DNA from: an uncultured Acidobacteriota bacterium
Lineage (GTDB): Bacteria; Acidobacteriota; Thermoanaerobaculia; UBA5066
Assembly (NCBI GenBank): GCA_963836285.1
Contig: CAWIIN010000002.1
Span: 1,650,386 to 1,714,385, forward strand
Direction of reading: 5' to 3'
Length of the DNA stretch: 64,000 nt
Shown here: piece after piece, positions 3,455 through 29,159 of the stretch
How the letters are laid out: every line of letters begins with the position of its first letter
How positions within the stretch are numbered: the stretch's first letter is position 1
Translations under genes and position numbers: made by a program
The notes under the pieces: generated by a model
What the model saw: the letters and a program-made list of their open reading frames with translations, nothing else
What the model was told of the DNA's origin: nothing
Databases searched by the model: none

Positions 3455-3505
3455 CCGCGCGGGACGTTATCAGACGGGGGCGGCCGGCTCGCCGTATGAT
3501 CGCGG

Positions 3506-6988: not shown

Positions 6989-7012
6989 GTTGCCTCCTCT
7001 TCTCTCTTCCGC

Positions 7013-7909: not shown

Positions 7910-7922
7910 CGTCGTCCTCCTC

Positions 7923-10985: not shown

Positions 10986-11092
10986 GGCCGCCCTCCTTCT
11001 GTTTCGTCCGGTTCCCTAGCAGACCTCTCGGAGGGGCAGGCTGTCAAGACGCGATCTCAGGCGCGTTTACGCGCCGCCGAACGAACGGCCGC

Positions 11093-13005
<1,913 letters not shown>

Positions 13006-13070
13006 CCGGCGAACTATAGGCTTTGTTAGACTGACTGCACCCGGGGGAAACCCTCGAAAGCGTTCGGAAC

Positions 13071-14888
13071 ATGACGCCGGAGTTCGATCACTACTCGATT
13101 TCCCGCGTCCTCGGAGAGGGAGGGACGGGGGTCGTCTACCTCGCCAGGGACCAGCGGACCGGCCTCGACGTGGCGGTCAAGGTCGTGGCCCAGCGCGAGC
13201 TCGACGCCGTGCTCCGGGCCCGGTTGCCGAGGGAGAGCGCCGCGCTTGCCGCGCTCAGCCACCCGAACGTCGTGCGGTTCCACGAGTTCACCGAGTCCCA
13301 GGACGGCACGCTCGCCATCGTGACGGACTACGTGGACGGGTCGGACTTCCGCGCCTTCGAAGGGCTGCCGTTCCCCGAGCTCCTTCCGCTGATGGTCCAG
13401 GCCGTCCGGGGCCTCGCGTACCTGAGGAGCCGGGGCGTCGTGCACGGCGACCTGTCGTCGGACAACTTCCTCGTCGCCCTGGAGAGCGGGACGCGCGTGA
13501 CGAAGGTCGCCGACCTCGGGTTTTCGGCGCTCCTCCGCCCCGCGGACGCGGACGGCGCCTCGGGTGCGGGATCCGGACAGTTCGTCGGGAAATTCGCGTT
13601 TGCGTCCCCGGAGCATTTCTTCGCGTCGGACATCGACTGGCGGAGCGACGTCTACTCGCTCGGCGTCGTGTTTCACAGGCTCCTGACGAACGAGGCGCCG
13701 ATCACGGTGAGCCGCGAGTCGAGATACTTCGACTGGATGGTGGCCCACGAGAAGGAGCATGCGTTCGAGGTCCCGTCTCCGCCCGGCGGGCCCGCTCTGC
13801 CCGATGCGCTGCGGGACGTGGTCCGTCGAATGCTCGCCCGGTCCCGTGACCAGCGACCGCAGAGCTACGAGGAGATCCTCGACGCGCTCGACCGTGTCCG
13901 GCGCGTCGCCCCGGCGGAGCCGGGGCCCGCGGAGTCGGTCGAATCGTCGCAGCAGAAGAGGTGGCCGGACCTCGAGGTGCCGGAGCCGCACACGGAAAGG
14001 TTCGTCTCCTTCTCCGCGTCCCCATCGCACGCGATCCCCGCCGATCCCGGGCCGCCCTTCGAGGAGCGGCGCGTCGAGCCGCCCCCGGACCGCTTCGCGG
14101 TGGAGCCGCCTGGCTCCGAAGAGAGTCCGCTCCGCTTCGACTCGGGCTCGGACACGGCGCCGTCGTCCACGGAGCTGCTTTCGCCGCCGAGCCTGCAGGA
14201 CGCCGCGAGGACGGCTCCGACCGTCGTGACCGAGAGGCCGGAGAGAGACTCCGGCGACGCCCAGTGGACCGGAGGCGCCGCGAAGGACGCGCCTCCCGAA
14301 CCGGTCCGCGCGTCTCCCGCTCCTTCCGAGGAGAAAACCGAGCGGCTCGACGACGTCATCGAGAAGCTCAGGCAGCGATCTTCCCTGGAGCTCCTGCCGC
14401 CGTTGACGACGGTCCCACCGAGCCCGGAGCCCGCCGCGCCGGCGCCTCCGGCCCGCACCATCCCGACGCCTTCGCCCGCCCCGCTGCCGCCGGCCGCGCC
14501 GACCCCGCCGCCGCCGGGTCGCCGGTCCGAGCCCGCGGCCGCTCCGGTGCGTGCGGAGGTGCGGTCCGCACGGACGCCCTCGAAGCCGGGTCAGCGCGTC
14601 GTCGTCTACGGCGCTTCCCCTCCCGCCGCCACCGCTCCGCGCCGTGCGCCTGCGCCTCCTCCGCCGATCTCCACACCCGCGACCGCCGCGGGCGATCGGC
14701 GGCTCGGCCGGATCGGGATCGGGCTGATCGTCGCGGCCATCGTCGTCCTCTTCGCGGCCGTGCTGTGGGTCCTCGTCGCCGTCGCGCGCGGCGCGTCCGC
14801 CGGTGCGCCCCGCAGGACCAGCGCCACGGGCCGGGCGACGTCCGTCGCCTCAGCGCCCGCGGCATCCACCCACTCCGAGTTCGTGTGA
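13071..14888 (+). CDS. Hanks-type Ser/Thr protein kinase with Pro-rich linker and C-terminal TM helix (PpkA-like)
   Basis: GEGGTGVVY glycine loop, VAVK, HGDLSSDNFLV catalytic loop, DLGFS, SPE motif. The C-terminus is low-complexity Pro/Ala with a hydrophobic helix. Confidence 0.85.
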   Translation: MTPEFDHYSISRVLGEGGTGVVYLARDQRTGLDVAVKVVAQRELDAVLRARLPRESAALAALSHPNVVRFHEFTESQDGTLAIVTDYVDGSDFRAFEGLPFPELLPLMVQAVRGLAYLRSRGVVHGDLSSDNFLVALESGTRVTKVADLGFSALLRPADADGASGAGSGQFVGKFAFASPEHFFASDIDWRSDVYSLGVVFHRLLTNEAPITVSRESRYFDWMVAHEKEHAFEVPSPPGGPALPDALRDVVRRMLARSRDQRPQSYEEILDALDRVRRVAPAEPGPAESVESSQQKRWPDLEVPEPHTERFVSFSASPSHAIPADPGPPFEERRVEPPPDRFAVEPPGSEESPLRFDSGSDTAPSSTELLSPPSLQDAARTAPTVVTERPERDSGDAQWTGGAAKDAPPEPVRASPAPSEEKTERLDDVIEKLRQRSSLELLPPLTTVPPSPEPAAPAPPARTIPTPSPAPLPPAAPTPPPPGRRSEPAAAPVRAEVRSARTPSKPGQRVVVYGASPPAATAPRRAPAPPPPISTPATAAGDRRLGRIGIGLIVAAIVVLFAAVLWVLVAVARGASAGAPRRTSATGRATSVASAPAASTHSEFV

Positions 14889-14898
14889 AGGAGCCGCC

Positions 14899-15540
14899 AT
14901 GACCGACAACCGACCGCCACGCCCCGGCGACATCGACGCGACGGCCACGAGCGCGGGCGGAGGGACGTCGCTGCGCGACATGCTTTCCAACGCGCGCGCG
15001 CAGTCGAAGGGTCAGGGGGTGGTCCAGGGCTCCACGATCTTCTTCAAGAATCTCGCCGAGTCGATCGGTCACTCCAACCGCAACCTGAAGATCGGGCTCG
15101 CCTTCCTCACGGCGGCGTTCGTCGTCGTCGCGGCGGCTCTCGGCACGCTCATCTTCCAGGCGTTCCGGAGCCAGGTCGCGACGAAGACGACGCTCGAGCA
15201 GCAGATCCAGTCCATGGACGCCTCGACGCGCAAGCAGATCCAGCCCGTCCTCGACGCGATGACGGCGATGGAGAAAAAGCTCGCGGACCAGCAGGACGGC
15301 CAGCGGCGGGAGCTCGAAGGTGTGAGGCAGCTCCTCCAGGCCGACGTCGACGCGGCGAAGGCGGACGCGGCCGCGGCGCGCAAGGAAACGGCGGAGCTGC
15401 GCACGTCCCTGAAGGCCGTCGAAAAGTGGGCGGACGAATTCGGGAAGACGTACCTGCAGGACCGGGCCAACCTCGACACGCGCGTGCGGCGTCTCGAGGG
15501 CGCCCCGGCACCCGCGGCCGCACCGCCGGCGACGAAGTAG
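14899..15540 (+). CDS. Coiled-coil membrane protein of unknown function
   Basis: ATG at 14899 preceded by GAAGGAG. One TM helix (LAFLTAAFVVVAAALGTLIF) followed by a coiled-coil (QQIQSMD...AAKADAAAARKETAELR). Sits between the two kinases. Confidence 0.5.
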   Translation: MTDNRPPRPGDIDATATSAGGGTSLRDMLSNARAQSKGQGVVQGSTIFFKNLAESIGHSNRNLKIGLAFLTAAFVVVAAALGTLIFQAFRSQVATKTTLEQQIQSMDASTRKQIQPVLDAMTAMEKKLADQQDGQRRELEGVRQLLQADVDAAKADAAAARKETAELRTSLKAVEKWADEFGKTYLQDRANLDTRVRRLEGAPAPAAAPPATK

Positions 15541-15547
15541 GGATCGC

Positions 15548-16735
15548 GTGCGCTTCGGGTTCGGCCTCGAGGAGATCGAGCTCGGCGAAATGGTGGGCCG
15601 GGGGGGATCGGGAGAGGTGTTCGCGTCGCGGCACCGCCGGACGGGCGCGCGCCTCGCCGCGAAGGTCTATCCGTTCGACCGGATGGACCCGGCGTTTCGA
15701 CCGCGCGAGAGGTTCCATCGCGAGTGCCGCGTCCTCTCGAGGATGGAGCATCCGGCGTTTCCCGCCCTCTACGGCTGCGGCGAGGAGGACGACGGGAGCG
15801 CCGGGTGGGCGATCATGGAGTGGATCGAAGGAGAGCCTCTGTCCGCGTATCGGTCCGCGCCCCTTCCCGAGGTCGTCCGCCTCGCGCACGGGATCGCGTC
15901 CGCTCTCGACGCCCTGCACGTCCAGGGCGTCCTTCATCGGGACGTCGCGTTCGACAACGTCCTCGTCGAGAAGCGGAGGTTCGGTCCGAACCCGCGACTG
16001 ATCGACCTCGGCATCGCGAAGGACGTCGGTTCGAACGCGGACCTCACGATGGCCGGCGCCTTCCTCGGCCGCGTTCCGTTCGCCTCGCCCGAGCTCCTGA
16101 CGGAGGAAGGTGCGGCCGGCCTCGTGGACCCGCGCAGCGACGTCTTCTCGTTCGGCGTCCTCCTCTACGAGTGGCTGTCGGGACGGCCTCCATTTCCGGG
16201 AGAGACCCCGGAGCGCGTCATGAAGGCGCAGAAGCGGAAGTCGGCGCCGAGGCTCGTGCCCCGGGAAGGTGCCGAGGCCGCGAACGGAGGCCTGTCTGCC
16301 TTCGTGGAGAGCCTCCTCGCGACCGACATCGAGAGGAGGCCGGCCTCGGACGAAGTCGTGAGACGCCTGAGCGAATTCCGCGGGCTGTTTCCGCGCCACC
16401 CCCTGGAGACGGCTCCAGCGGCGGCGTCCACCTATCGCACGCCCGAGATCGGTTACGCGCTCCTCCCGAGACGCTTCGACGCGGCCCCCGTGTTTCCCAG
16501 GCTTCGGGCGGTGTCGTTTCCCGAGCCGTCACCCCGTGCGGCGGACGCCGGATCGCCGCGCGACGCCACGCCCCGGGCCGGGGGGGCACCCGCGCCAACG
16601 CCGGTTCCGGGCGCCGGAGCCGCCTCTGCGGGGCTCGGCTCGCGCCCGGGATTCGGCGGGCTGGTTCTGGCCCTTGGAATCCTCGCGTTCGTCGCGGCGT
16701 GCGCGCTGGCCGCGTTCCTCGTCTTCAGGAACTGA
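15548..16735 (+). CDS. Second Hanks-type Ser/Thr protein kinase with C-terminal TM anchor
   Basis: GRGGSGEVF, AAKVY, HRDVAFDNVLV, DLGIAKD, SPE motifs, and a C-terminal hydrophobic helix. Confidence 0.85.
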   Translation: MRFGFGLEEIELGEMVGRGGSGEVFASRHRRTGARLAAKVYPFDRMDPAFRPRERFHRECRVLSRMEHPAFPALYGCGEEDDGSAGWAIMEWIEGEPLSAYRSAPLPEVVRLAHGIASALDALHVQGVLHRDVAFDNVLVEKRRFGPNPRLIDLGIAKDVGSNADLTMAGAFLGRVPFASPELLTEEGAAGLVDPRSDVFSFGVLLYEWLSGRPPFPGETPERVMKAQKRKSAPRLVPREGAEAANGGLSAFVESLLATDIERRPASDEVVRRLSEFRGLFPRHPLETAPAAASTYRTPEIGYALLPRRFDAAPVFPRLRAVSFPEPSPRAADAGSPRDATPRAGGAPAPTPVPGAGAASAGLGSRPGFGGLVLALGILAFVAACALAAFLVFRN

Positions 16736-18203
16736 CGGCGGGAGACGCGGAGGGCCGGGGGGCCGGCGTCGCCGCCGGCTTTCCCCCGGACGCGGGCGGC
16801 GGGATGGTGGGTGTCGCCGTGTCCGTCGCGGTCGGCGTCGGCGTGTGAGTCGCCGTCGGCGTCTCGGTCGGAGTCGGCGGGTATTCGAGTGGCTGGAGGC
16901 CGCTGAGGACTGCCGGGGGACGGAACGACGGTTCGGCCGTCGCACGTGGGGGCTTCGGAGCGGAACGCGGGACCGCCGGCGCGGACGTGCCGCGTCCCGC
17001 CTGCTGTTTCCCCGATGGCGCGGGCGTCGCGGGGACCGGCGTCGGGGCGGGGGCGGGCGCCGCGACGGGGGCAGGCGTTGCGGCGGTGGCGACCGTCCCG
17101 ACGGGAGCCGCCGTCGAGGGAGCCGGCGCCGCCTCGGTCGGGCGCGCCGCGCGAGGAACGGCGGCCGGTTTTCCCGGCGAGGGCGCGAAGCGCCACAGGA
17201 AGTATGCGATCGCGACGACGACGGCGGCCAGAGCGACGCCCCCGGCGAGCAGCCGGCGTCCGCGCGGTCTGGGCGCCGGCTCTTCCGGGGGGCCTGAGGC
17301 GGCGCCCGCCACGAGAGTCTTGTCCGCTTCGTCCTCGACGCCCGGAGCGGGAGCGGTGACCGCGGGCACCCGTCCGGTCTTGCCGAGTCCGAGGCGCGCG
17401 GGCGTCCCGCGCGAGAGGATCGCGACGGAGACGTTGTCCTTCGAGCCGGCTTCGAACGCGAGGCGGTAGATCTCGTCGGCCGTCTCCTGGAGGCTCCCGG
17501 TCACCTCGAGAGCCGTCAGGAAGCGCTCGGCCTCGAGGACGTCGGTCACGCCGTCCGTCGTGAGGATGACGGCGTCGCCCGTGGCGAGGATCACGTCGCT
17601 CCGCACGTCGGGAACGACCTTCTTCTCCTGGCCGAGGCTTCGGGTGAGGGCGTGCGCGAACGGATTGCCGGAGTCGTCCTCGGGCGCGACGGAGTCCGAG
17701 CCGAGGGCCCGCCTCTGCTCGGCGAGCGCCGTGTGGTCGACGGAGAGCTGCCTCACCTTCAACCCGGAGACGAGGAAGATCTTGCTGTCGCCGACGTTCG
17801 CGACGACGAGCCGGCCGTCCGCGAGGATCATCGCGAACGCGACGGTGGCGCCCATCCCCTTCTGCTCGGCCGAGGCCTTCCCGCGCTGGTGGATCTCGCG
17901 GTTGATGTCGTCGATCCAGCCGCGGATCTCGGCCTCGAGGGCCTCCGGCGGAAGGGACGTGGCGTCTTCGCGCGCGGCGAAGAGGCGGACCTTCTCCCGC
18001 AGGATCTCGACCGTCATGCGCGAGGCGACCTCCCCGGCGTTGTGGCCGCCCATGCCGTCGCTGAGGACCGCGAAGGCGCGCAGGGCGGGGGAGGCGGGCA
18101 GGACCGCGAGGATCGCGGCATCCTCGTTCGATTCCCGCCGGCCCTTCTCGGAAAGGCCTCCCGCGAGGTACGGGGGCTGCGGAGTTTCCGCGTCGGCGCC
18201 CAA
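16725..18203 (-). CDS. PP2C-family Ser/Thr phosphatase (PppA-like) with Pro/Thr-rich tail and TM segment
   Basis: PP2C motifs (SDGMGGH, GATVA, DGVTD, SKDNVSV). C-terminal TM helix and low-complexity Pro/Ala/Thr region. Confidence 0.85.
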   Translation of the reverse strand: MGADAETPQPPYLAGGLSEKGRRESNEDAAILAVLPASPALRAFAVLSDGMGGHNAGEVASRMTVEILREKVRLFAAREDATSLPPEALEAEIRGWIDDINREIHQRGKASAEQKGMGATVAFAMILADGRLVVANVGDSKIFLVSGLKVRQLSVDHTALAEQRRALGSDSVAPEDDSGNPFAHALTRSLGQEKKVVPDVRSDVILATGDAVILTTDGVTDVLEAERFLTALEVTGSLQETADEIYRLAFEAGSKDNVSVAILSRGTPARLGLGKTGRVPAVTAPAPGVEDEADKTLVAGAASGPPEEPAPRPRGRRLLAGGVALAAVVVAIAYFLWRFAPSPGKPAAVPRAARPTEAAPAPSTAAPVGTVATAATPAPVAAPAPAPTPVPATPAPSGKQQAGRGTSAPAVPRSAPKPPRATAEPSFRPPAVLSGLQPLEYPPTPTETPTATHTPTPTATDTATPTIPPPASGGKPAATPAPRPSASPAVSS

Positions 18204-18213
18204 TGTCGCTCCC

Positions 18214-19032
18214 TCAGTCCTCGCGATAGGTCATGACGACGTCGCCGATCTCGATGCGGTCGCCGTGGACGAGTCGCCGCGAGGCGTTCTCCTCCATCTC
18301 CTCCCCGTTGACCCGCGCCGGATTCGTTCGCGCGTAGTTGATGAGGGAATAGGTCCGCCTGTCGAAGACCAGTTTGGCGTGCTTGCCGGAGACGGACGCG
18401 GGCAGGAGCTGGATGTGGCGGTATGGCGGTCCGGGGTCGCGGCCGATTGTCGTCTCGACGCGCTCGCCCGGCGCCGTCCGGAAGATCCGGATCTCGGTCT
18501 CCCGATCGCCCTCGTCGACCATGAATCGCCCCGGAAGCGTATCGAGGACGCCGGCGGGAGGCTGCCCGGCGTGAACGACGTCGCCGTCCGTCCATGCGGC
18601 CGGCGCGGGCCCGTCGGGGACGGGAGGCGGGGCCGCGGAGCGCGACGGCACGTTGATGACGACCGGCTTCTTGAGCAGGACCGCGAGCACGACGACGAGC
18701 GTCGCGAGGAGAACGAGGACGCCGATGCCGAGGAGGAGCACGACGCTTCCGGGCAGGCCGGCGATGCCCGCCGGGGCCGCGGCGGGGAGCCTCGTCGGGG
18801 CCGGAGTGATCTCGGCCGCCGGCTGCGGCGTCACCTCGGCCGCGGGTGCCGCGGGTGCCGCCGTGGGAGCGGGCGTGGGCGCGGGGGTCGCCGCCTCGCC
18901 TGCCGCGGGCAGCGGCGGCAGCGGAGGAAGCGTGGGGACCGGCGTCTGCGCGCCGGCCTCGAGGGACGTCAGGACCGCGGCGATCGCCGCCGCAAAGAAG
19001 ACCCGCTTCCTTAGGTCGCGGCCGTTTCGCAT
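18214..19032 (-). CDS. FHA-domain protein with N-terminal TM/Pro-rich region
   Basis: C-terminal FHA signature (GRDPG...IQLLPASVSGKHAKLVF...NGEEM...GDRIEIG). Start set at ATG 19032, preceded by GGGGGAG. The upstream 92 codons of the ORF were rejected. Confidence 0.8.
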   Translation of the reverse strand: MRNGRDLRKRVFFAAAIAAVLTSLEAGAQTPVPTLPPLPPLPAAGEAATPAPTPAPTAAPAAPAAEVTPQPAAEITPAPTRLPAAAPAGIAGLPGSVVLLLGIGVLVLLATLVVVLAVLLKKPVVINVPSRSAAPPPVPDGPAPAAWTDGDVVHAGQPPAGVLDTLPGRFMVDEGDRETEIRIFRTAPGERVETTIGRDPGPPYRHIQLLPASVSGKHAKLVFDRRTYSLINYARTNPARVNGEEMEENASRRLVHGDRIEIGDVVMTYRED

Positions 19033-19132
19033 CGTCTCTCCCCTCGATTCGTCTGCCGGGCCCTTTCCGGAGAGGATAACCGCACCGCCATTCCACGGGT
19101 ACCGGACCCGCGGGATCCCGCCGGAGCATGCG

Positions 19133-19945
19133 TCACGCGGGTCTCGAGGAGGGAAGGCGGACGGCGAGGAAGTCCTCCGGGTCGGGGCGATGCTCCGGCA
19201 CGAGCGACAGCCCGAGCCGGACCAGCTCCCGCGGGACGTCGGTCTCGGCGGACGCGCGCACCGGGGACGGGAGGGCCGAGAGCGCCATGGTCTTGTCGGC
19301 GTCTCCAATCGGAAGGTCGCCGGCGGCGTGCCCCTCGAGCAGCACGTGGATCTGAGCGGCGAGGCGGTACGCGAGCGCGGCGCGGGGCGAGGTGCCGCGC
19401 GCGCCGGCGCGGATCTCCGGCGCGAGGAATGGCGCCTCCTCGTCCACGGCCCCGAGTCCGGCGAGGCCGGACGCCCCGTCGTCGCGCCGCGGCTCGCAGA
19501 GGAACTCGTTCACACTCAGGTGGCGTGCCTCGAGCCGGGCTCCCTCGCGCAGGCGCTTCAGCTCGTGCAGAGGGATGTGAAGGCCCGCGAAGCCGCAATC
19601 GAGAGCCGCGATCTGGACCTCGGCGAGGGCCGTCATCGTGCCGCGCCGCGTCCGGTGACCGCCCCCCGCCACTGGCTCGGAGGTCTGGAATGCGATGTAA
19701 GCGCGCCCGGCGATCTCCGTCGAACCGAAGTCCAGGACGGGGGGAAGCAGGGGATGGTCGAAGAGCGCCGTCGCGCTGTAGATTGCGTCAACGGCCATCG
19801 CCGCGCCGCTCGAAGAGGGAACGAAGCCGTCGACGCGGACCCATGCCGGGACGCCGTCGAGGACGCGCGCCGCTCGGTAGCGCAGGCGCAGGCCCGTCTG
19901 CTCGGGCCCTTCGAGCAGCCGGTAACCCGGAAGCCACGAGGACAT
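19133..19945 (-). CDS. Hypothetical protein with degenerate protein-kinase-like fold (pseudokinase candidate)
   Basis: Kinase-like motif order (YRLLE...RVLDG..WVRV; HPLLPPVLDFG; PFLAPEI as an APE-like motif; LVPEHRPDPEDF) but no HRD or DFG catalytic residues. Immediately upstream of the FHA gene in the same orientation. Confidence 0.45.
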   Translation of the reverse strand: MSSWLPGYRLLEGPEQTGLRLRYRAARVLDGVPAWVRVDGFVPSSSGAAMAVDAIYSATALFDHPLLPPVLDFGSTEIAGRAYIAFQTSEPVAGGGHRTRRGTMTALAEVQIAALDCGFAGLHIPLHELKRLREGARLEARHLSVNEFLCEPRRDDGASGLAGLGAVDEEAPFLAPEIRAGARGTSPRAALAYRLAAQIHVLLEGHAAGDLPIGDADKTMALSALPSPVRASAETDVPRELVRLGLSLVPEHRPDPEDFLAVRLPSSRPA

Positions 19946-20052: not shown

Positions 20053-20799
20053 ATGGACCAGGTGGGCGTCCGCGTCGGGCTGAAGATCTGGGGAAGACAG
20101 GTCGAGATGGAGATGACCCTTCCCGCGGGGCCGGCGCGTCTCGAATCGCTCCTGCCCGTTTTCCAGAGGATGGCGGACGGGTTGGTCGACCTGGCGACGG
20201 AGCGCGCCGGCGCCGAGGGCCGGGCCGTCTCCTGCCGGAAGGGCTGCGGCGCCTGCTGCCGTCAGCTCGTTCCGATCTCGGAGGTCGAGGCGCGGCGCAT
20301 CGGCCGGCTCGTGGACGAGCTGCCCGAGCCGCGGCGGACGGAGGTCCGGGTGCGTTTCGCCCGCGCCCGCGCGCGCCTCGCCGGGGCGGGACTCCTCTCG
20401 ACGCTCGAGGATCGCGAGGCGTTCGTGGACGGAGACGTTCCCGCGTTCGGCCTCGCCTACTTTCATCTCGGGATCGCGTGCCCGTTTCTCGAGGACGAGA
20501 GCTGCTCGATCCACGCCGATCGGCCGATCAGTTGCCGCGAGTATCTCGTGACGTCGCCGGCCGTGAACTGCGCCGACCCGAAACCGGGGGCCATCGCGCT
20601 CGTCGAACTCCCCGGAAAGGTCTGGACCGCGCTGGCGCGAGCGGATTCCGTCGGCGATTCGGGGCGCGTCGTCCGGTGGGTGCCGCTCGTCCTGGCGCCC
20701 GAGTGGGCGACGACGCATCCCGACGAGTCCGAGCCTCGACCAGTCGAGGACGTCCTTCGAGGCGTCGTCGACGAGCTTGCCGCGCGCCACGGCGCCTGA
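20053..20799 (+). CDS. YkgJ/UPF0153-family CxxCxxCC putative Fe-S or zinc-binding protein
   Basis: Internal ATG at 20053 of ORF 19429..20799. CRKGCGACCRQ followed by the CPFL...C..H pattern of the YkgJ family. Confidence 0.65.
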   Translation: MDQVGVRVGLKIWGRQVEMEMTLPAGPARLESLLPVFQRMADGLVDLATERAGAEGRAVSCRKGCGACCRQLVPISEVEARRIGRLVDELPEPRRTEVRVRFARARARLAGAGLLSTLEDREAFVDGDVPAFGLAYFHLGIACPFLEDESCSIHADRPISCREYLVTSPAVNCADPKPGAIALVELPGKVWTALARADSVGDSGRVVRWVPLVLAPEWATTHPDESEPRPVEDVLRGVVDELAARHGA

Positions 20800-20992
20800 C
20801 GTCGGCCCGGGCCGCGTCGCGGGGGCCGATGGATTACAATTCGACAGATCAAGAGGGTTTTGAGCGCTCCGTCGCACCGCCTCGGCGGGCCGGAGGTCTC
20901 GAAGGAGAAGGCATCTGGCTCGGAAACGTGAGACCGGGTCGGCCCCGAAAGAGGTCCGTAAGGCCGAGGCGGCGCCGAGAGCTGCCGCCCCG

Positions 20993-21943
20993 TTGCCTCA
21001 CGTCGAGCCGCCCGTCACACTCGCCCGGCTCCGCCACTACCGGAAGCTGACGAAGGCGGTGTCGGCGCATCTTCGCGCCCAGCTCGAGACGACGCTCGAG
21101 ACGCTCACGCCGCTCTTTCACGCCGAGACCGTCTTCGGGGACTACGTCCAGAAGAGCGTGCTGTCGGCCAAGGCCGAGGTCGAGGCGGGGCCGCGTGCCC
21201 AGCTCGGGCCCGACCGCTGGGGCCGCGGGTCGGAGCTCGCGATGGCGCGCGGGCCGGCCGCGCCACCGACGGCAAAGGAGCTCGAGGACGCCCGGAAGTA
21301 CGCGAAGGCGAACATCTCACTGAAGGAGGCCGTGAAGGGCGCCGACCGCGCGTTTCACGACCTCGAGAGCCTCTACGACGGTATCGCCAAGAAGAAGCCC
21401 TACGATCTCGGAATCGGCCTGACTCCGCCTCTCCCCATCAACACCGCGGCTCTCGAGATCCTCCCGCTGGACTATCCCCACGTCGCGCGCTCGGAGCGCC
21501 AGACGAAGCGCGTCATGGTCACGGCGCCTCTGACGTGGATCGTGACGTATGCGGGGTGCTCTCTCGGGCGCCTGCGCGCGCTCATCGCGGACCCGAACCG
21601 CTCACGCGACGAGCTCCAGCGCGTCCTGACGCACCACCTGCTCCTGCACGTCGTGCTGGAGCGCAAGAGCGGCCTTCGCGAGCTTCTCGAAGCGCTGAAT
21701 TTTCCCGTGAGGTCCGAAACGCTGCCGGAGTTCGGCGCGCTTCCCCTGACGGTCGTCACGTCGGCGGTGAAGACGGAGCGCCCGTCCGACGACGTCATCC
21801 TGGAGAGCACCGATCTTTCGGGCGTCGACGCGACCGAGGAGATCGTCCGCGTGACGAACGTCGCCGGAATGGTCGACAGGCGCCGGGCGCGCCTGCTCGA
21901 GATCGTCGAAGCCGAGGAGACCGGGGCGGGCGAAGACGCCTGA
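20993..21943 (+). CDS. Uncharacterised protein, paralog A of a tandem pair
   Basis: 316 aa, TTG start. Aligns along its whole length with the downstream ORF (LRHYRKLTKAVSAHLRAQLE / LRSLRKLTRAIAESLRTELK; PLDYPHVA / PLEYPHVA; TAPLTWIVTY / TQPLKWIVTY). Confidence 0.55.
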   Translation: MPHVEPPVTLARLRHYRKLTKAVSAHLRAQLETTLETLTPLFHAETVFGDYVQKSVLSAKAEVEAGPRAQLGPDRWGRGSELAMARGPAAPPTAKELEDARKYAKANISLKEAVKGADRAFHDLESLYDGIAKKKPYDLGIGLTPPLPINTAALEILPLDYPHVARSERQTKRVMVTAPLTWIVTYAGCSLGRLRALIADPNRSRDELQRVLTHHLLLHVVLERKSGLRELLEALNFPVRSETLPEFGALPLTVVTSAVKTERPSDDVILESTDLSGVDATEEIVRVTNVAGMVDRRRARLLEIVEAEETGAGEDA

Positions 21944-21976
21944 GGCGTCCCGCGACGAACGGAGGATTCACCCCAG

Positions 21977-22753
21977 ATGGACCAAGCGTACGACCTCCAG
22001 AAACTCCGGTCGCTCCGGAAGCTGACGCGGGCGATCGCGGAGTCGCTGCGCACGGAGCTCAAGGAGCATCTGGGCACCGTGACGCTCCTCTTCCGGCCGC
22101 GCACGATCCTGGGCGACTTCGTCGAGGGCAGCGTCAAGCGCGAGGTGAAGGGCTCGGACGTGGCATTCCGGGAACTGCGCAGCCGGTACGAGACCGTGGC
22201 AGGGGGGCGACCCTACGGGCTCTCGAAGGAACTGAATCCCCCGATCGAAATCCTGAACACGAACGTGGAGCTCGTCCCGCTCGAGTACCCGCACGTCGCA
22301 AAGGAAGGGTCGGAAACGAGGACGATCACCGTCACGCAGCCGCTCAAGTGGATCGTGACGTATTCGGGACTTGCACCCACGCGCCTCCGGGAGCTCATGG
22401 CGGCCAAGATCCCCGACGCCTCGCAGGTGAAGGAAATCATCGTGCACGCGCTCGTTCTGAACACCGTGCTCACGAGGCAACCGGGGCTTCTCGCGGTCTT
22501 CGAGGCTCTTCGCTTCCCCGTCGTCACCGAGAAACTGCCCGGCCTGGGCGAGCTCCCCGTCACCTGCATCTCCTCGAGCGTGCGGACGGTGCGGCCGCCG
22601 GACGACGTCCTGATCGAGAGCACGGAGATTTCGGGCCTGAACGCGTTCGAGGAAGTCGTGAATGCCAACGACATCGTGCAGATGCAGGACCCCTTCCGCG
22701 AAAGGCTCCTCGAGGTCATCAAGGAAAACGCGCCCGAGGCCCTGAAGGGCTGA
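21977..22753 (+). CDS. Uncharacterised protein, paralog B of a tandem pair
   Basis: 258 aa, ATG preceded by GGAGG. About 35-40% identity to paralog A by eye. Confidence 0.6.
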   Translation: MDQAYDLQKLRSLRKLTRAIAESLRTELKEHLGTVTLLFRPRTILGDFVEGSVKREVKGSDVAFRELRSRYETVAGGRPYGLSKELNPPIEILNTNVELVPLEYPHVAKEGSETRTITVTQPLKWIVTYSGLAPTRLRELMAAKIPDASQVKEIIVHALVLNTVLTRQPGLLAVFEALRFPVVTEKLPGLGELPVTCISSSVRTVRPPDDVLIESTEISGLNAFEEVVNANDIVQMQDPFRERLLEVIKENAPEALKG

Positions 22754-22786
22754 CCCGCGGCGTCGGGAGACGCTCCGGGGGCCGGC

Positions 22787-24343
22787 TCAGGCCTCGAGCA
22801 ACGCCAGGCGGCCCACGCGCTCGAAGTTCGAGGCGATTCCCTCCTCGACGTCGGCGGCGAGAGCCGCGTTCGCGGGGTCCCGCTCCCGAAGGGCGGCTTC
22901 CATCTCAGCGGTGATCGCCGCGCGGCCGCGCGTGCCGTCCAGGAGCAGGAGAAACGTCCGCACGAGCGGGTCCTCGAGCCGGATCGACTGGTGCCTGAGG
23001 TTCGTGACCGGCGCCGACGTGCGCGCCTGGAGGCGGGCGAGGGCGCTCGCGCGCGGGCGCTCCGAGACCTCCGTGACGAAGGGGCACGGCGCGCTCTTAA
23101 GGTCGGCGAGGTCGGCGCCATAGGCCGCGAGAAGGAAGCGGAGCAGGCGAGCCTCGTCCTCGGTGGTGGCGGCCCGCCCGCCGGAGGAAGACAAACGGGC
23201 CCGGGCCGCGGAGAAAAGGTCCGTCGTCCGTATCCATCGAGGCCAGATACGCCCGAGCTCGAGAAACGCCGCCTTCGAGAGGGGATGCGACGTCGTCAGC
23301 TCGCCTTCCTTCTCGAACGTGAAGCTCATCGGCGCGTCGGATGCCACGTCGGCGCCGGAGGACGGTCTTGTGCTCGCGCAGACGTGAAGGGCGCGGATGG
23401 CCTCGGGGTCCGGCTCGTGAGAAGGGGAGGCGGCTTCCCTGCAGAGGAGCGTCTGGCGGAAGCGCCGGAAGAGCAGGAAATCGCGGTACTGTTGCTGGAG
23501 GATCAGGTTCTCGGAGCCCACCGCGAGGAGGAACCGGCCGGCCGGGCTGTCCTCCTTCCAGACGGTCATGTCGGAGTAGTCGGCTTCCGAAAGGAACTTG
23601 AGACCGTGTCGGGCCGCGCGCTCGACGAAGTCGACGAAAAGGAGGGGCTCGTTGATCTCGGCCAGGTCGTCGTGGAACAGGACGGCGTCCGGCTGGCTCG
23701 CCAGGTGGTCGATCGTCTCGCGCAGGATCGCCGAGTAGACAGGACGTGGCGGAGCCGCATCCCCGAGGAGCCGCACGAGACCCCGCGCCTGCTCGATTCT
23801 CGAGGCGGGCTCCTCCTCGCCCCGCACGTGCCAGCGCATCATCTGGCGTACGGCGTTCCTCACATGGCATCCCGGGAGCGCGTTGTAGCTCACGTACGCG
23901 ACGCCGTTCGGAGCGAGCGACTCGGAGGCGATCGCGAACACCCGCTCCTGGACGGCAGGCGGCACCCACGAGTAGAGGCCGTGCGCGACGACGTAGTCGA
24001 ACGTGCCGAGTCCGGAGACGTCCAGGAGGTCGGCGTGCTCGAGCGTCACGTTCGCGAGACCGAGGGCGGAAACCTGCGCCTGCCCCTGCTCGATGGCGGA
24101 GCGCGCCGCGTCGAGGCCGAGGAAGGTGCTTCCGGGAAGGGCGTATGCCATCGGGACGAGATTTCCCCCGTTCCCGCAGCCGAGCTCGAGCACGCGGCAG
24201 CGTTCGGGAGGAGCGGCGCTGAGGCCGTACAGCGCCGCGATCGTCGCGAGGCGGTCCGGATGTGCCTGGCAGAACGGCGAGCCGGGATACGAGACGGAAT
24301 CGTATGGGGTCGGCTCGTTTTCGGGCATCGGGTCCGCGATCAT
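22787..24343 (-). CDS. Class I SAM-dependent methyltransferase fused to a C-terminal methyltransferase-regulatory-like domain
   Basis: Start ATG 24343 (MIADPMPENEP). LELGCGNGGNL SAM motif I. Long C-terminal domain resembling the MethyTransf_Reg architecture. The upstream 274 codons of ORF 22787..25165 were rejected. Confidence 0.65.
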   Translation of the reverse strand: MIADPMPENEPTPYDSVSYPGSPFCQAHPDRLATIAALYGLSAAPPERCRVLELGCGNGGNLVPMAYALPGSTFLGLDAARSAIEQGQAQVSALGLANVTLEHADLLDVSGLGTFDYVVAHGLYSWVPPAVQERVFAIASESLAPNGVAYVSYNALPGCHVRNAVRQMMRWHVRGEEEPASRIEQARGLVRLLGDAAPPRPVYSAILRETIDHLASQPDAVLFHDDLAEINEPLLFVDFVERAARHGLKFLSEADYSDMTVWKEDSPAGRFLLAVGSENLILQQQYRDFLLFRRFRQTLLCREAASPSHEPDPEAIRALHVCASTRPSSGADVASDAPMSFTFEKEGELTTSHPLSKAAFLELGRIWPRWIRTTDLFSAARARLSSSGGRAATTEDEARLLRFLLAAYGADLADLKSAPCPFVTEVSERPRASALARLQARTSAPVTNLRHQSIRLEDPLVRTFLLLLDGTRGRAAITAEMEAALRERDPANAALAADVEEGIASNFERVGRLALLEA

Positions 24344-24405
24344 AGAACGGCGGCTCCTGGTCATCCCTCGCGCTAGACTCGGTCGCGATCCTGAGGAGGC
24401 CGCGA

Positions 24406-25889
24406 TGCCGAAGAGCCCGCCATCCCGCGACGTCGACGTGAGGCTGGGGACGGAGACGGCGCCCGCGCCGCTCGACCCTGACGCCCCGTTCCGGCTGCTC
24501 GTGATCGGCGACTTCGGCGGCGCCGGGACCGGGCCCCTCGTGACCCCTCGTGCCGTGGACCGGGATGTCCTCGAGGACGAGATGCGCCGCCTGCGGGCGA
24601 CCGTGGACGTGCCCGTCGGCGACGGGGAGGAAGCCCGCATCGACCTGCGAGAGCTCGACGACTTCCACCCCGACCGGCTTCTCGAACGCGTCGAGGCTCT
24701 GGCGGCGTGGGGGAGGACGCGCGAGCGCCTCGAGGACCCCCGCACGTTCGGCGACGCGGCGCGCGACATGCGCGCGTGGGCGGGAACGGCTCCCGTGAAG
24801 CCGGCAGAGGCGCCGGCGTCCGCTGCCGCCGCGGCGGACGACATCGTGGGCGATCTCCTCGCGGGGGCCGCCCGGCGGGCGAAACCCGCCGCGGACGCCG
24901 CGTTCGAATCCGAGGTGAAGGCGATCGTGCGGCCGCATCTCGCCCCCGAGGAGGATGCCGATCTGCCGCGCCTCCGGCAGGCGCTGGACGACGTCCGCTC
25001 GAGCCTGCTGCGGACGATCCTCGCGCACGCCGGGTTCCGTAGGGTCGAAGCCGCGTGGCGCTCGCTCGATCTCCTCGTGCGCCGGGTCGACGACGAGTCC
25101 GTCCGCGTCTTCTTCCTCGACGCGCCCCGCGACGTGCTTCTCGAGGACCTCACGCGCCACGACACCCTCTCGGCGACCGGCCTGTACCGGTGCCTCGTCG
25201 CCGAGACGGTCGAGACGCCGGGAGCCGAGCCCTGGGGCGCGATCCTCGGTCTCTATGACTTCGGGCCGACGCTCGCCGACGCCGCCCTCCTCTCGCGGAT
25301 CTCGAAGCTCGCCCGTGCCGCGGGCGCCCCGTTCCTCTCCGGCGCGCGCTCCGATTTCGTCGGTTGCGCGTCGCTCGCCGTGACGCCGGATCCCTCGGAC
25401 TGGCGCACGCCCGCGGGAGAAGGCGCGCTCGTCTGGGACGAGCTCCGGGCACTGCCGGAGGCGACGTGGATCGCACTCGCCCTGCCGCGGCTCATGCTGC
25501 GCCTGCCGTATGGAACGAAGACGGACCCGATCGACACATTCGCGTTCGAAGAGGTGCCCGGCGTGCCGTCGAACGGAGATTATGTGTGGGGAAATGGAGC
25601 CGTCGCGTGCGCCCTCGTTCTCGCGGGCGCCTTCGAGCAGGACGGGTGGTCCCTGCGTCCCGAGACCGCGGCCGAGATTACGGGCCTTCCGACGCACGTC
25701 TTCAAGGACGGCCTCGAGACCCGCGTGACGCCGCCCTCCGAAGTCGTCCTCACGATGCGCGCCGCCGACAAGATTCTCGAGGCCGGTCTCGTCCCCGTGC
25801 TTTCGCTGAAGGGGAGCGAGAGCGTGCGCGTCGCGCGCCTGCAGGCGATCGCGAGCCCGCTCCGCGCACTCGCGGGACGCTGGAGCTAG
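24406..25889 (+). CDS. Orphan single-chain TssB-TssC fusion (sheath-like) protein
   Basis: Residues ~30-110 align with TssB/VipA from this same window (FRLLVIGDFGG vs FVVGVLGDFSG; IDLRELDDFHPDRLLERVEAL vs MKFNNMMDFEPDQVVQQVEPL). The remainder aligns with TssC (LPRLMLRLPYG vs LPHTLMRLPYG; FAFEEVPG vs FNFEEDVDG; GLPTHVF vs GLPAHTF). Confidence 0.7.
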
Positions 25890-25921
25890 GAAGCGCGGGA
25901 GACGCGGGCGAGGAGGATTCG

Positions 25922-26824
25922 GTGGCTCACTTCACGAATGCACAGGGCGTGCGCATTTCCGGACAGGCCCTCGTCGTGCAGGTCGGCGAGAGCAAGGAGA
26001 TCGGTCTCTGGGGCTTCCGCGACTTCGGCGGCCAGCCGCTCAACGTGGACGTGATGACGCCGAACGGCCAGCAGTGCTCGGACATCGCGAGCGTGTTCCA
26101 GGTGCGCGAGCAGGGCGACACGCGCTTCTACCGCGTGCGCGGCCTCACGGCCGGAAGCGGCCGCGTCGACGCCCTTCAGGGAGTCGCGAACACGTGGGAC
26201 TGGGTGAGCCTCACCGTCTCCGGTGCACCGTCGGGTCTCGACAGGCTCGTGAGGGCGCTCGGGGACGGGACCCTGAGGACCAGTCCGGGGGACGCGAGCT
26301 TCCTCCACGCGGCCGCCGCGGGATCGGCGACCCTCGCCCTCGATCCGCTGATCGTGATCCTCCTGAACAATCTCCTCACGTTCGGGGGCGTCGACGTCCT
26401 CAGTCTCCTCAGGCGCGGCCAGAGCCAGCACGGCGTCGTGAGCGGAAACCTCGTCACGTGCAAGGCGGTCGACATCCAGGGATACCGCGGCATTCCCGTC
26501 AGGCTGCAACCGCGCGACATGGCGATCAACGTCGTGTGCTCGATCCTCGAGCGCTTTCCGGACGGGCAGTTCGACCTCGGGTTTCCGAGGCCCGTCGGCG
26601 GTCCGACCGGGTTCAACCCGTCCGACGACGTCTTCTTCGCGGTGCCCGACCTCGCGACCGCTCAGCAGTGCTGGAACGGCACGATCAGCCGGTCGCTCGG
26701 GCAGATGATGCGGCCGGCTCAGGATCGTGTCCGCATGGCGATGTCTCCGCGAGCGCGATTCCGCATCCTTTATCCGGACGGCCTCAACCACCTTCACGTC
26801 TCCGTGACACGCAGCCCGATCTGA
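25922..26824 (+). CDS. Hypothetical protein (about 300 aa) directly downstream of the TssBC fusion
   Basis: GTG start at 25922 with GAGGAGG 7 nt upstream. No recognisable motif, no TM segment, one Cys pair. Confidence 0.5.
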   Translation: MAHFTNAQGVRISGQALVVQVGESKEIGLWGFRDFGGQPLNVDVMTPNGQQCSDIASVFQVREQGDTRFYRVRGLTAGSGRVDALQGVANTWDWVSLTVSGAPSGLDRLVRALGDGTLRTSPGDASFLHAAAAGSATLALDPLIVILLNNLLTFGGVDVLSLLRRGQSQHGVVSGNLVTCKAVDIQGYRGIPVRLQPRDMAINVVCSILERFPDGQFDLGFPRPVGGPTGFNPSDDVFFAVPDLATAQQCWNGTISRSLGQMMRPAQDRVRMAMSPRARFRILYPDGLNHLHVSVTRSPI

Positions 26825-26849
26825 AGCGTTCGGGTTGGAGGGACGCGCC

Positions 26850-28088
26850 CTAACGAGGCCCGCGCGCGCTCTGCGGGGAGGCTTCGAGATCGGCGGCCCG
26901 GCCCTTCCAGGTTCCATCGAGCGTGCCGCGTAGCCGAGTCTCCCACAGGGACTCGCGGTCGAGCGCCTCCAGCGCGCTTTCGGGGCAGCCGTGCGAGAGG
27001 TCGATTCCGCGGCACCAGCGCGTGCCCTTCTCGAAGTCCGGGCGGCGCTCTTCCCACGCCGCCCGCGCTTTCCGTTCGTCCGGAAGAGCGACCTCATCGA
27101 GGAACTCGGCCTCGAACGCGTCGGGCTCCTGTCCGTCCGCGGGAGGCACGACCGTGCGGCGCCCCGAGTCCACGTCCTCGCCGGTGATTTTCGTGAAGGC
27201 CTCACCCGCAAAGGCTGCCGCGGCGAGGTCGAGGCCCGCCATTGCGCGGAGGAGCGCGTCGACGCCGCCGGGATGTCCGAGCGTGCCGAGGAGGCGGAAG
27301 CGCTCCGGGCCGGCGCCGACGCCCCGGACCCACTCGAGGACGCGCTCGAGATCCGCGGCGTTGCCCGTCGCGGCGACGAGCAGCATCGAGTCGGGATCGG
27401 CGGCAGGGCCGCGGCCGCGGCGAGTCTCCTCGAGGACCCATGCCTGCCGGCACCAGAGGGCGGCGCGGCGCGCGCCGGCGCGCACGCCGGGATCCGGGTC
27501 CGCGAGCCCGCGCTCGAAGACCGTCCGGCCCTGCGGAAACGGGGCAAGGGCGACGACCCGCCACGCCTTCAGGCGGACCGCGGGCTCATCGGATGCGAGC
27601 CACGCCTCCTGGGCGCGTCCGTCGGGCCGCAGACGCCCGCGCAGCGCGAGCGCCTCGGCCGCCGCCGCGGAGCGAAAGGGCTCCGCGGAGGAGACGGCGT
27701 CCTGGAGGCGGGGAAGGAGCATCTCGGCCGGGCCGTGGGCGAACGCCTCGGCGAGCCCTTCGGCGCGCGCCCCCGTCGCCGACGCGAACGCCTCCCAGAC
27801 GCGGTCGGTCGCATCGGGAAGCCTCGAGCGCAGGAGGCCGTAGCCGGCGGCGAACGCCTCGTCGGCGTCGTCGCCTTCGAGGCCGGGACGGACGAATGCC
27901 GCGAGCTCGTCGCCCGCGATGAGGAGACCCTCGAGATGCGCCTCGATCCGCTTCTCGAGACGGTCGAGGTCGCGCGGAAAAAAGCGACGCGACGTCAGCG
28001 CGTGCCGACGCTGCCCCCACAGGAACGCGAGCTCCTCGAAATGCTCCTCGACGAGGTCGGGCAGGAACTTCAGCGGGGCGTCGGGCAT
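26850..28088 (-). CDS. HEAT-like (PBS-lyase type) repeat protein, possibly TIGR02270-like
   Basis: 412 aa, repeated D-P-x-x-x-V-R-x-x-A pattern (PDPGVRAGARRAAL, EPAVRLKAWRVVAL). Family assignment is tentative. Confidence 0.5.
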   Translation of the reverse strand: MPDAPLKFLPDLVEEHFEELAFLWGQRRHALTSRRFFPRDLDRLEKRIEAHLEGLLIAGDELAAFVRPGLEGDDADEAFAAGYGLLRSRLPDATDRVWEAFASATGARAEGLAEAFAHGPAEMLLPRLQDAVSSAEPFRSAAAAEALALRGRLRPDGRAQEAWLASDEPAVRLKAWRVVALAPFPQGRTVFERGLADPDPGVRAGARRAALWCRQAWVLEETRRGRGPAADPDSMLLVAATGNAADLERVLEWVRGVGAGPERFRLLGTLGHPGGVDALLRAMAGLDLAAAAFAGEAFTKITGEDVDSGRRTVVPPADGQEPDAFEAEFLDEVALPDERKARAAWEERRPDFEKGTRWCRGIDLSHGCPESALEALDRESLWETRLRGTLDGTWKGRAADLEASPQSARGPR

Positions 28089-28107
28089 TGCCGGGGCACG
28101 CTGCTTC

Positions 28108-28545
28108 TCAATTGAGGGAGACGGACCCGCCCTTGATGCGGTTCATGCGTTTCGCGTGCGAGACGAGGTCCTTGCCCTTGATGAGGATCTTCCCGTCGGC
28201 GCGGATCTCGATCGAGCCCTCCCCGACGCGGAGGACGAGGCCCTTCTTCGCCTCGAGGACGAGCTCGCCGGGGAGTCGCGCCTCATCACCGGCCGAAGAC
28301 CCGATGCGGCCGACGACGACGGCGCGGGACCCTTCGGGCGGAATCCAGACGAGGACGTCATCGCCGGGGAGAAAGGCGAGAGGGGAAGCATCCGACGTCC
28401 GGAGCGTGTCGGCGGCAAACGCGGCCTTCTCGTCCGAAACCGTCACGCTCAAGGCACCGTGCTCGTCGACGTCGAGGACCTTGGCGCGTTGAAGGGTGGC
28501 GGGCACGCGGACGGCCTCGTGAGGTCTCTGTGGTCGCATCGTCAT
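28108..28545 (-). CDS. Small gpV/gp5-like OB-fold spike-domain protein (tentative)
   Basis: 145 aa. N-terminal OB-like segment (AKVLDVDEHGALSVTV...PGDDVLVWIPPEGSRAVVVGRI) and C-terminal beta-strand repeat (IEIRADGKILIKGKDLV) resemble phage baseplate protein V. Confidence 0.4.
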   Translation of the reverse strand: MTMRPQRPHEAVRVPATLQRAKVLDVDEHGALSVTVSDEKAAFAADTLRTSDASPLAFLPGDDVLVWIPPEGSRAVVVGRIGSSAGDEARLPGELVLEAKKGLVLRVGEGSIEIRADGKILIKGKDLVSHAKRMNRIKGGSVSLN

Positions 28546-28575
28546 CGTCCCTCCCTTCAGGAGCCTCGTCGGTGC

Positions 28576-29151
28576 TCAGACGAAGGCGTCGCCGGGCTCG
28601 AGGAACTCGAGGTTGCCGAAGCCCGCCGCACGGAGGTGGTCACGGATCTTCTCGTGAACCCAGATGCTGCCGGTGGCTTCGGCCAGGCGGAAGACGAGAG
28701 CCCCGCGAGCCTTCTTCGGGTCGAGCACGAGGTCGTCGAACTCGACGTCGATCACGGGACCGCCGGTCCGAATCGTCGCCCGCGATTTCGCCATGTCGGC
28801 CGCGGCGACGAGCCCGACGACGTTGGCGGCCCGATAGTTCCGGTACGAGCGCTTTCCGTCCGGCTCCCGGATCTCGGCCGGGTAGTAATCGATGTTGTCG
28901 ACGCCCGCGGCCGCAAGCGCGTCGATGAGGTCGTCGCGGAACAGCGGGATCGTGCCGTCGAAGAGCTCGGGCATTTCCGCCCCGTGGTCCTTCGCATCCG
29001 GATTGAGGGGTTTCAGCGGGAAGACGAGGGGGTTCGGAACGGCCACGCCGATCCGGGTGCCGAGATCGAAATCGGCCTCCCGGATGAACGGCCAGCTGTC
29101 GATCCAACGGCAAGGGTGCTTGGCGCCGAACCGTTCGAGCAGGTAGTACAT
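28576..29151 (-). CDS. Putative immunity protein for the AHH nuclease
   Basis: ATG at 29151 lies 9 nt after the toxin stop, with GGAGG overlapping the stop (TAGGAGGCTGCATG). 191 aa with no signal peptide. The upstream 75 codons of the ORF overlap the toxin and were rejected. Confidence 0.55.
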   Translation of the reverse strand: MYYLLERFGAKHPCRWIDSWPFIREADFDLGTRIGVAVPNPLVFPLKPLNPDAKDHGAEMPELFDGTIPLFRDDLIDALAAAGVDNIDYYPAEIREPDGKRSYRNYRAANVVGLVAAADMAKSRATIRTGGPVIDVEFDDLVLDPKKARGALVFRLAEATGSIWVHEKIRDHLRAAGFGNLEFLEPGDAFV

Positions 29152-29159
29152 GCAGCCTC

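Follow-up and report, generated by a model that had tools for sequence, protein, structure and literature searches.

In the canonical type VI secretion system (T6SS) the contractile sheath is made of two polypeptides, TssB and TssC (VipA/VipB or HsiB/HsiC). In the handshake of the Pseudomonas aeruginosa sheath, the gp18-like region of TssC provides both acceptor strands as well as a C-terminal donor strand, and TssB contributes its N-terminal strand as the second donor (PMC5807055). HsiB1 and HsiC1 without the gp18-like TssC region still bind each other and form no tubules (PMC3597794). Sheath assembly, sheath length and the recruitment of ClpV are further acted on by T6SS-encoded proteins outside the core machinery, namely TagJ/ImpE, the TssA-like caps and the TagA stoppers (PMC4239648, PMC6745524). 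Altogether, the control of sheath length, termination and recycling is partly understood, and this knowledge comes almost entirely from Proteobacteria. A second group of proteins relevant here are the protein-lysine methyltransferases (PKMTs) of Rickettsia, enzymes that methylate the outer-membrane autotransporter OmpB. Here we analyse an 8-kb block of seven genes (g1 to g7) in a stretch of 64,000 nucleotides, the window, from an uncultured Acidobacteriota bacterium (contig CAWIIN010000002.1, positions 1,650,386 to 1,714,385). The block encodes a natural TssB-TssC fusion (BCfus), two tandem paralogs of a second family (Par, with the copies ParA and ParB) and a PKMT-type methyltransferase.

Comparison of the window with 160 related loci shows that the block is a mosaic and not one system. 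Three layers can be distinguished: a core of Par, BCfus and methyltransferase, a lineage-specific layer comprising a CxxCxxCC protein and the duplication of Par, and a strain-specific layer formed by the orphan gene g6. The core is a recurrent, largely T6SS-linked gene set that is often found at the ClpV/VgrG edge or the tssBC edge, and its fusion protein is a sheath paralog of fixed architecture that lacks the polymerisation domain throughout the family. This T6SS accessory set around a truncated sheath fusion is widespread, and no description of it was found in the open-access literature searched.

Results

BCfus is a sheath paralog without the polymerisation domain

BCfus is a single polypeptide that joins TssB and TssC through a linker, each subunit being represented by its N-terminal two thirds. 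In Pfam searches the match to PF05591 (VipA) covers profile positions 9-122 of 155, and PF05943 is matched over positions 6-292 of 301 with 188.2 bits. PF18945, the C-terminal gpW/gp25-like domain that corresponds to the gp18-like handshake domain, was not found by Pfam in BCfus or in three distant members of the family. These three members share the truncation of BCfus, their TssB part ending at VipA position ~122. As a control, the canonical proteins of the same window were searched as well: TssB spans VipA profile positions 2-154 of 155, and TssC has both PF05943 and PF18945 (157.9 bits). BCfus also stays below the NCBIfam equivalog cut-offs for TssC (TIGR03355, 179.1 versus 271.5 bits) and TssB (TIGR03358, 28.8 versus 97.25 bits).

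The relation to solved sheath subunits is recovered with E values of 5e-74 for TssC and 8e-15 for TssB. On the Myxococcus xanthus sheath (5urw) the family profile maps to residues 2-124 of TssB (of 164) and residues 5-359 of TssC (of 494), and the alignments to solved TssC chains end at residues 337-359. The linker contains a conserved G-x-LLDQxLEE helix that aligns with TssC's N-terminal helix, which is recognised by ClpV, and the N-terminal region of TssB, the source of a donor strand in solved sheaths, is retained. Because the domain needed for tubules is missing (PMC3597794), it appears unlikely that BCfus polymerises around Hcp into a contractile tube.

The truncated form is found in more than 600 protein clusters of ~500 amino acids, and at least 467 species-level genomes in GTDB carry a locus for it. 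Carriers include members of the Acidobacteriota, Desulfobacterota, Planctomycetota, Nitrospirota (Nitrospiraceae), Binatia, Verrucomicrobiota, Gemmatimonadota and Gammaproteobacteria, and some of the loci come from relatives of Paludibaculum, Chloracidobacterium and Acidobacteriaceae. At ~40% identity the family alignment has 61 invariant and 41 nearly invariant columns, and protein lengths lie within ~490-525 amino acids. The gene in the window has an intact reading frame with strong periodicity of third-position G+C content (GC3), preceded by a good ribosome-binding site (GAGGAGG).

BCfus, Par and methyltransferase genes recur together

To place the block in a wider context, gene order around the window proteins was compared with 80 BCfus loci and 80 Par loci from metagenomes, which together make up the 160 related loci. 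T6SS core genes lie within 10 kb of BCfus in 41 of the 80 BCfus loci, and three or more of them in 25. The usual layouts are ClpV-BCfus-VgrG and BCfus-(TssB)-TssC-Hcp and further genes. The genomes closest to the window proteins are metagenome-assembled genomes (MAGs) of Thermoanaerobaculia (71-75% identity). In Thermoanaerobaculia MAGs and 23 close metagenome contigs the full order is kept, running from the Ser/Thr kinase, PP2C and FHA genes and the gene at 19133 through the CxxCxxCC gene, ParA, ParB and the methyltransferase to BCfus. This order persists down to ~58% BCfus identity, and the region downstream of BCfus is variable even among relatives that are 75% identical. The original prediction had regarded the whole block as an accessory system riding with the T6SS and had proposed gene order as a check on it. 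That idea survives in part: Par, BCfus and the methyltransferase are adjacent in distant lineages, in several arrangements, so that the core trio recurs, while g1, g6 and g7 drop out and the seven-gene order is confined to Thermoanaerobaculia-like relatives.

The Par family comprises 302 homologous clusters, all annotated as hypothetical, with no Pfam domain and no model in either Pfam or NCBIfam. Par is a soluble protein of ~255 residues without a known fold; an AlphaFold model computed from a 26-sequence alignment is confident, with a pLDDT of 89 and a pTM of 0.85. ParA and ParB share 37% identity (E = 1e-61), which bears out the tandem duplication noted earlier. ParB is the copy orthologous to the single-copy Par proteins that elsewhere occur near T6SS genes and upstream of BCfus. 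An insertion of ~55 residues sets ParA apart from ParB and all single-copy homologs, which lack it, and ParA occurs only where the gene is duplicated, in the close relatives L002, L003 and L085-L106.

In the distant genomes L005 (Pyrinomonadaceae), L060 (Verrucomicrobia), L067 and L078, BCfus is immediately preceded by one Par gene on its own strand; in L032 (Binatia) Par lies upstream on the opposite strand. Of the distant Par loci, 27 extend far enough downstream to be assessed, and in nine of these Par directly precedes BCfus on the same strand; the gaps are 37-198 nucleotides (nt). Elsewhere Par borders T6SS clusters on their ClpV/VgrG side (L082, L136, L148 and others), in L082 beside ClpV-VgrG-Rhs genes without BCfus. 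Overall, T6SS or BCfus genes are present in 11 of the 15 distant Par loci that have at least 6 kb of flanking sequence. As a separate observation, genes with FHA domains are located 2-6 kb upstream of Par/BCfus in the distant loci L125, L142 and L152, as is the case in the window (18214-19308).

Two methyltransferase families and a putative divergent control region

By family membership g4 is a PKMT-type protein-lysine methyltransferase. Its S-adenosylmethionine (SAM) methyltransferase domains are accompanied by the regulatory domain PF10119 and the winged-helix domain PF21782, all above the Pfam cut-offs. The protein matches Rickettsia PKMT1 (5dnk) from end to end, with residues 11-478 aligned to 36-505 (E = 1.5e-65), and it also matches PKMT2 (5doo, E = 1.5e-59). 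Orthologs of g4 adjoin BCfus in L002, L003, L016, L033-L035 and L038, and in L016, L033-L035 and L038 their orientation relative to BCfus is unlike that in the window. In the closest genome relative two tandem PKMT-like genes were observed between ParB and BCfus (L002, 6810-9921).

A second methyltransferase family, unrelated to PKMT and absent from the window, replaces or joins the PKMT type in other lineages. Its members have ~500-560 amino acids, the domains MTS (PF05175) and DUF7059 and an HPPY motif. Genes of this family adjoin BCfus in ten loci (L010, L015, L033-L035, L038, L056, L057, L064 and L073), and in L119, L125, L128 and L150 they are arranged divergently to Par. Taking both families together, a methyltransferase gene of one or both types adjoins BCfus in 13 of the 80 loci. 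All members of the set are seen in L125, from a 403-kb soil contig, where PKMT (+), MTS (-), Par (+) and BCfus (+) form an island; the next genes are of the lipid A acyltransferase and nitrilase types. Here the PKMT gene is 3.5 kb upstream of Par-BCfus, housekeeping genes flank the island and T6SS core genes are missing within 10 kb.

In the window g4 is divergent from BCfus, and a spacing of about 60 nt with a shared regulatory region had been predicted. The two starts are indeed 61 nt apart if g4 begins with the ATG at 24343, and 76 nt apart with the start conserved in relatives (probably 24328). The intervening 61-76 nt carry two boxes conserved among the relatives, GCGATCATAGAACGG and CGCGCTAGACTYGG, in addition to the ribosome-binding site of BCfus. 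These boxes would fit a control region shared by g4 and BCfus, in line with the earlier suggestion. A scan of the block for sigma-70 promoters and terminators gave nothing above the expectation from shuffled sequence, the sigma-70 consensus being uninformative for this phylum.

Genes outside the conserved core

The first gene of the block, g1, opens a plus-strand operon with ParA and ParB. Its product matches PF03692 with 32.8 bits (cut-off 23) and contains SCRKGCGACC, a CxxxCxxCC motif. Homologs precede ParA-ParB in 17 Thermoanaerobaculia-like loci, and the sole other case is L153, where a homolog with 46% identity is located beside T6SS genes. The gene is thus a lineage-specific companion and does not belong to the conserved core. 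A role as FliB-type lysine methylase was considered and dropped: no NCBIfam match was obtained even at E = 10, and the literature contained nothing useful on this point.

None of the 160 related loci contains the orphan gene g6, which has only 48 homologs; in two other genomes a homolog stands by itself, flanked by LysR/succinate dehydrogenase genes and SpoIIM genes. Within the block g6 is an insertion specific to the strain and not a member of the module. Its product combines an Ig-like domain at the N-terminus with a C-terminal alpha/beta domain that bears an S-x-x-R...H...D...H-x-H signature, in which S161, R164, H170, D184, D286, H290 and H292 are invariant. A whole-library profile search returned 176 relatives. 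Among ten distant relatives examined, four (P0357, P0358, P0362 and P0366) carry an N-terminal eCIS_core domain (PF13699) with the g6-like domain at the C-terminus, and P0356 has a VanY domain beside it. The distant relatives have S-x-H-x-x-G-x-A-V-D-I and D-H-x-H-V motifs with the canonical spacing of LAS/M15 zinc peptidases. Compared with that group (VanY, VanX and phage L-Ala-D-Glu peptidases), in which the zinc-ligand motifs are H-x(3-6)-D and H-x-H, the H-D spacing of g6 is 13 residues instead of 6. No match supporting LAS/M15 membership of g6 itself was obtained in Pfam (E up to 10), PHROGs, the PDB sequence profile search or hhalign against a VanY domain, and fold searches, dominated by the Ig-like domain, returned Ig-like matches only. 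No immunity gene is apparent beside g6. We read g6 as a putative mobile hydrolase, possibly T6SS cargo, inserted in the variable region downstream of BCfus.

The HEAT/ARM repeat protein g7 matches TIGR02270 over profile positions 4-373 of 410 (E = 6e-41), with 140.7 bits against a cut-off of 206.8. Its gene is the last of a minus-strand operon (26850-34720) that comprises, in order, VgrG, DUF2169, a 351-residue protein, a PAAR-like protein, an AHH toxin, Imm11, a 145-residue protein and g7. In L008, L011, L024, L060, L087 and L130, homologs of g7 are accompanied by VgrG, DUF2169 and PAAR-like genes. DUF2169 clusters of the published 'synteny type A' include an armadillo-like repeat gene (PMC11883445), and TIGR02270 domains have been found fused to the PRK06147 adaptor candidate, in whose neighbourhood AHH is a common toxin (PMC7714669). 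Since g7 is the last gene of the VgrG-DUF2169 operon and the gene content is that known from the literature, we assign it to the effector island and not to the TssBC module. The operon matches the gene content of the VgrG-DUF2169-DUF4150/PAAR-like 'synteny type A' clusters (PMC11883445) and of the PRK06147 neighbourhood (PMC7714669). It differs from the type A clusters in that the PAAR-like gene matches Tox-PAAR-like (PF13665) instead of DUF4150, the 145- and 351-residue proteins reach no DUF6484 or thiolase-like model, and the gene order is unlike the published scheme.

Layout and surroundings of the block

At the ~70% G+C of the window, open reading frames (ORFs) alone are uninformative. Genes were called from a GC3 frame plot together with independent calls on an identical Logan contig and domain searches, and all three agree with the seven genes that the original prediction had listed. 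Its statement that none of the seven has an assignable function no longer holds. Four genes belong to named families (PF03692, PKMT-type, TssB+TssC and TIGR02270), and only the Par pair and g6 are without one. The features of the block are collected in Table 1.

Table 1. Features of the 8-kb block, in window coordinates.
Feature	Position	Strand	Length or basis
g1, CxxCxxCC/YkgJ protein	20053-20799	+	248 aa
g2, ParA	20993-21943	+	316 aa
g3, ParB	21977-22753	+	258 aa
g4, PKMT-type methyltransferase	22787-24343	-	518 aa
g4-BCfus divergent intergenic control region	24344-24404	.	alignment of 10 distinct relatives
g5, BCfus (TssB-TssC fusion)	24405-25889	+	494 aa
g6, orphan gene	25922-26824	+	300 aa
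g7, TIGR02270-type HEAT/ARM repeat protein	26850-28088	-	412 aa

As described before, the block separates Ser/Thr signalling genes from the vgrG effector island. Upstream, two Ser/Thr kinases, a PP2C phosphatase and an FHA protein are encoded (13035-19308). Downstream, the vgrG effector operon is followed by a complete T6SS cluster with ClpV, TssG/F/E/C/B/A, TagJ/ImpE, two Hcp genes, TagF and TssM/L/K.

Several further features of the window were recorded. A gene for a 270-residue protein (19133-19945, minus strand) is divergent from the CxxCxxCC gene; it has no Pfam, NCBIfam or PADLOC match, and 16 related loci conserve it together with the FHA-PP2C operon. A gene for a Porphyromonas-type peptidyl-arginine/agmatine deiminase (11941-13176, minus strand; PF04371, E = 3e-112) lies immediately upstream of the Ser/Thr kinase genes. 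A formate dehydrogenase-N type operon (5319-11015, minus strand) encodes FdhE, cytochrome b, a 4Fe-4S subunit and the catalytic subunit. The catalytic gene appears as two ORFs (10413-11015 and 7923-10409) split by an in-frame UGA codon at 10410-10412. Since this codon is overlapped by an Rfam SECIS_3 element (10357-10415, 63.3 bits), the subunit is read as a selenocysteine enzyme with a twin-arginine translocation (TAT) signal. Finally, a strong match to the fluoride riboswitch (3504-3566, plus strand; 57.7 bits versus a gathering score of 34) is located just upstream of an ORF with a Dynamin_N GTPase domain (3600-5312), an unusual gene for a fluoride regulon.

Discussion

Based on the recurrence of the three families and the parts that BCfus has kept and lost, we lean towards the view that the conserved core is a T6SS accessory set in which BCfus acts as a non-polymerising analogue of a sheath subunit. 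What inclines us to this view is mostly association and architecture, and the specific mechanism is offered tentatively, as something between doubtful and possible. Having neither the acceptor sheet of the inner layer nor the C-terminal donor arm, BCfus would be unable to propagate a sheath. Given the parts it keeps, it could nevertheless use sheath subunits, ClpV or TagJ as docking sites. In this way it would act either on sheath growth, as a cap or a limit, or on recycling, by recruiting or titrating the ClpV machinery. In this scheme Par would work as the partner of BCfus, and the lysines modified by the methyltransferase would be those of BCfus, Par or the sheath. In the most detailed form of this proposal BCfus and Par would be a chain-terminating or cap subunit. 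Its TssB-like donor strand would enter the last sheath ring with no acceptor sheet being offered, and the subunit would thereby either fix the length of the sheath or, by its exposed ClpV-binding helix, show ClpV where the sheath ends; lysine methylation by the linked methyltransferases would switch its activity. As worded, this detailed form is quite unlikely. It would amount to a layer of post-translational control of a kind not known from any contractile injection system.

Several observations weigh against an accessory set of this kind. About half of the BCfus loci have no T6SS core gene within 10 kb. In Pyrinomonadaceae/Blastocatellia, BCfus is found upstream of mnmG (L014, L031, L037, L041, L047, L050 and L052), directly so in six of the seven loci. 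In most of these loci mnmG is followed by parA, parB and a selD-like gene. They lack T6SS genes within 10 kb, and the region is probably near the replication origin. Par is the immediate neighbour in only ~9% of BCfus loci and a methyltransferase in 16%, so partnership among the three is not obligatory. As many of the loci compared are from Acidobacteriota that are themselves related, independent events are fewer than loci. The mechanism, moreover, is one that we infer.

The most serious alternative, and still an unlikely one, is that the genes have no functional link at all: they would be unrelated passengers in a variable region between T6SS regulatory genes and the vgrG island, the fusion being one more T6SS paralog. 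The strain-specific g6, the lineage-limited CxxCxxCC gene, the assignment of the TIGR02270 gene to another operon and the variable region downstream of BCfus are all what one would expect of such a mosaic, as is the fact that most BCfus loci have neither Par nor methyltransferase neighbours. This reading does not account for the adjacency of Par and BCfus, with order and strand retained, across Pyrinomonadaceae, Verrucomicrobia, Binatia and unclassified Acidobacteriota (for the Binatia locus L032, the detailed comparison gives the opposite strand). Nor does it explain why methyltransferases of two families that are not orthologous turn up repeatedly next to BCfus or Par, in four or more arrangements, or why the four genes of L125 stand alone as an island.

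It is very improbable that BCfus and Par together form a second contractile sheath in which Par supplies the inner-layer (gp18-like) domain in trans. Par is often immediately upstream of BCfus, and its 255 amino acids could in principle cover the ~175 missing residues. However, most BCfus loci are without Par, and hhalign of the Par family against the C-terminal domain of the window TssC gave a probability of 0.2%; Par was rejected as the missing TssC domain on this basis.

Even less credible is that BCfus is a decaying, truncated tssB-tssC duplicate without a function of its own. The loss of domains essential for sheath polymerisation and the scores below the NCBIfam equivalog cut-offs would be compatible with decay. 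The same truncation and length are, however, maintained across hundreds of clusters and genomes in many phyla, the conserved alignment columns are numerous at low overall identity, and frame, GC3 periodicity and ribosome-binding site are those of an intact gene.

Least probable of all is an anti-phage defence or toxin-antitoxin island with a methyltransferase acting on DNA, a reading dropped as negative in PADLOC: the partial match of the methyltransferase domain to mad2 (residues 40-172, E = 1e-19) spans only the generic SAM-binding fold of a protein that aligns end to end with PKMT1 and PKMT2, the other seven proteins tested have no match and no nuclease partner is present.

A T6SS accessory set around BCfus would be of interest for several reasons. 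A widespread sheath paralog that has lost exactly the polymerisation domain and kept the donor-arm region and the ClpV helix is a natural candidate for a regulator. If functional, the pairing of BCfus, Par and methyltransferase would be the first link of protein methylation to a contractile injection machine. In the open-access full-text literature searched, we found no paper on a natural TssB-TssC fusion or on a T6SS with lysine methyltransferases. There is also a practical consequence for annotation. Genes of the BCfus type are labelled 'contractile sheath large subunit' or ImpC in the sources, and as a result T6SS loci of the Acidobacteriota, Planctomycetota and Desulfobacterota can be counted wrongly.

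Among known systems, TagJ/ImpE, the TssA-like caps and the TagA stoppers occupy the functional niche that we propose for BCfus and Par, and none of them has a sequence or fold relationship to either protein. As the window already encodes TssA (TIGR03363), TagJ/ImpE and TagF, BCfus and Par are not simple replacements of these three. The methyltransferase g4 has the three-part architecture of Rickettsia PKMT1 and PKMT2, with the SAM domain, PF10119 and PF21782 in common, and differs from the rickettsial enzymes in its setting, free-living Acidobacteriota in which its gene is paired with that of a sheath-like cytoplasmic protein. Compared with canonical TssB and TssC, BCfus keeps the N-terminal part of TssB, the interlaced middle-layer fold and a helix of the ClpV-binding type. 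It differs in being one polypeptide instead of two and in lacking TssB after ~residue 124 and the last ~135 residues of TssC, and it stands at a locus where a complete tssB-tssC pair is present as well.

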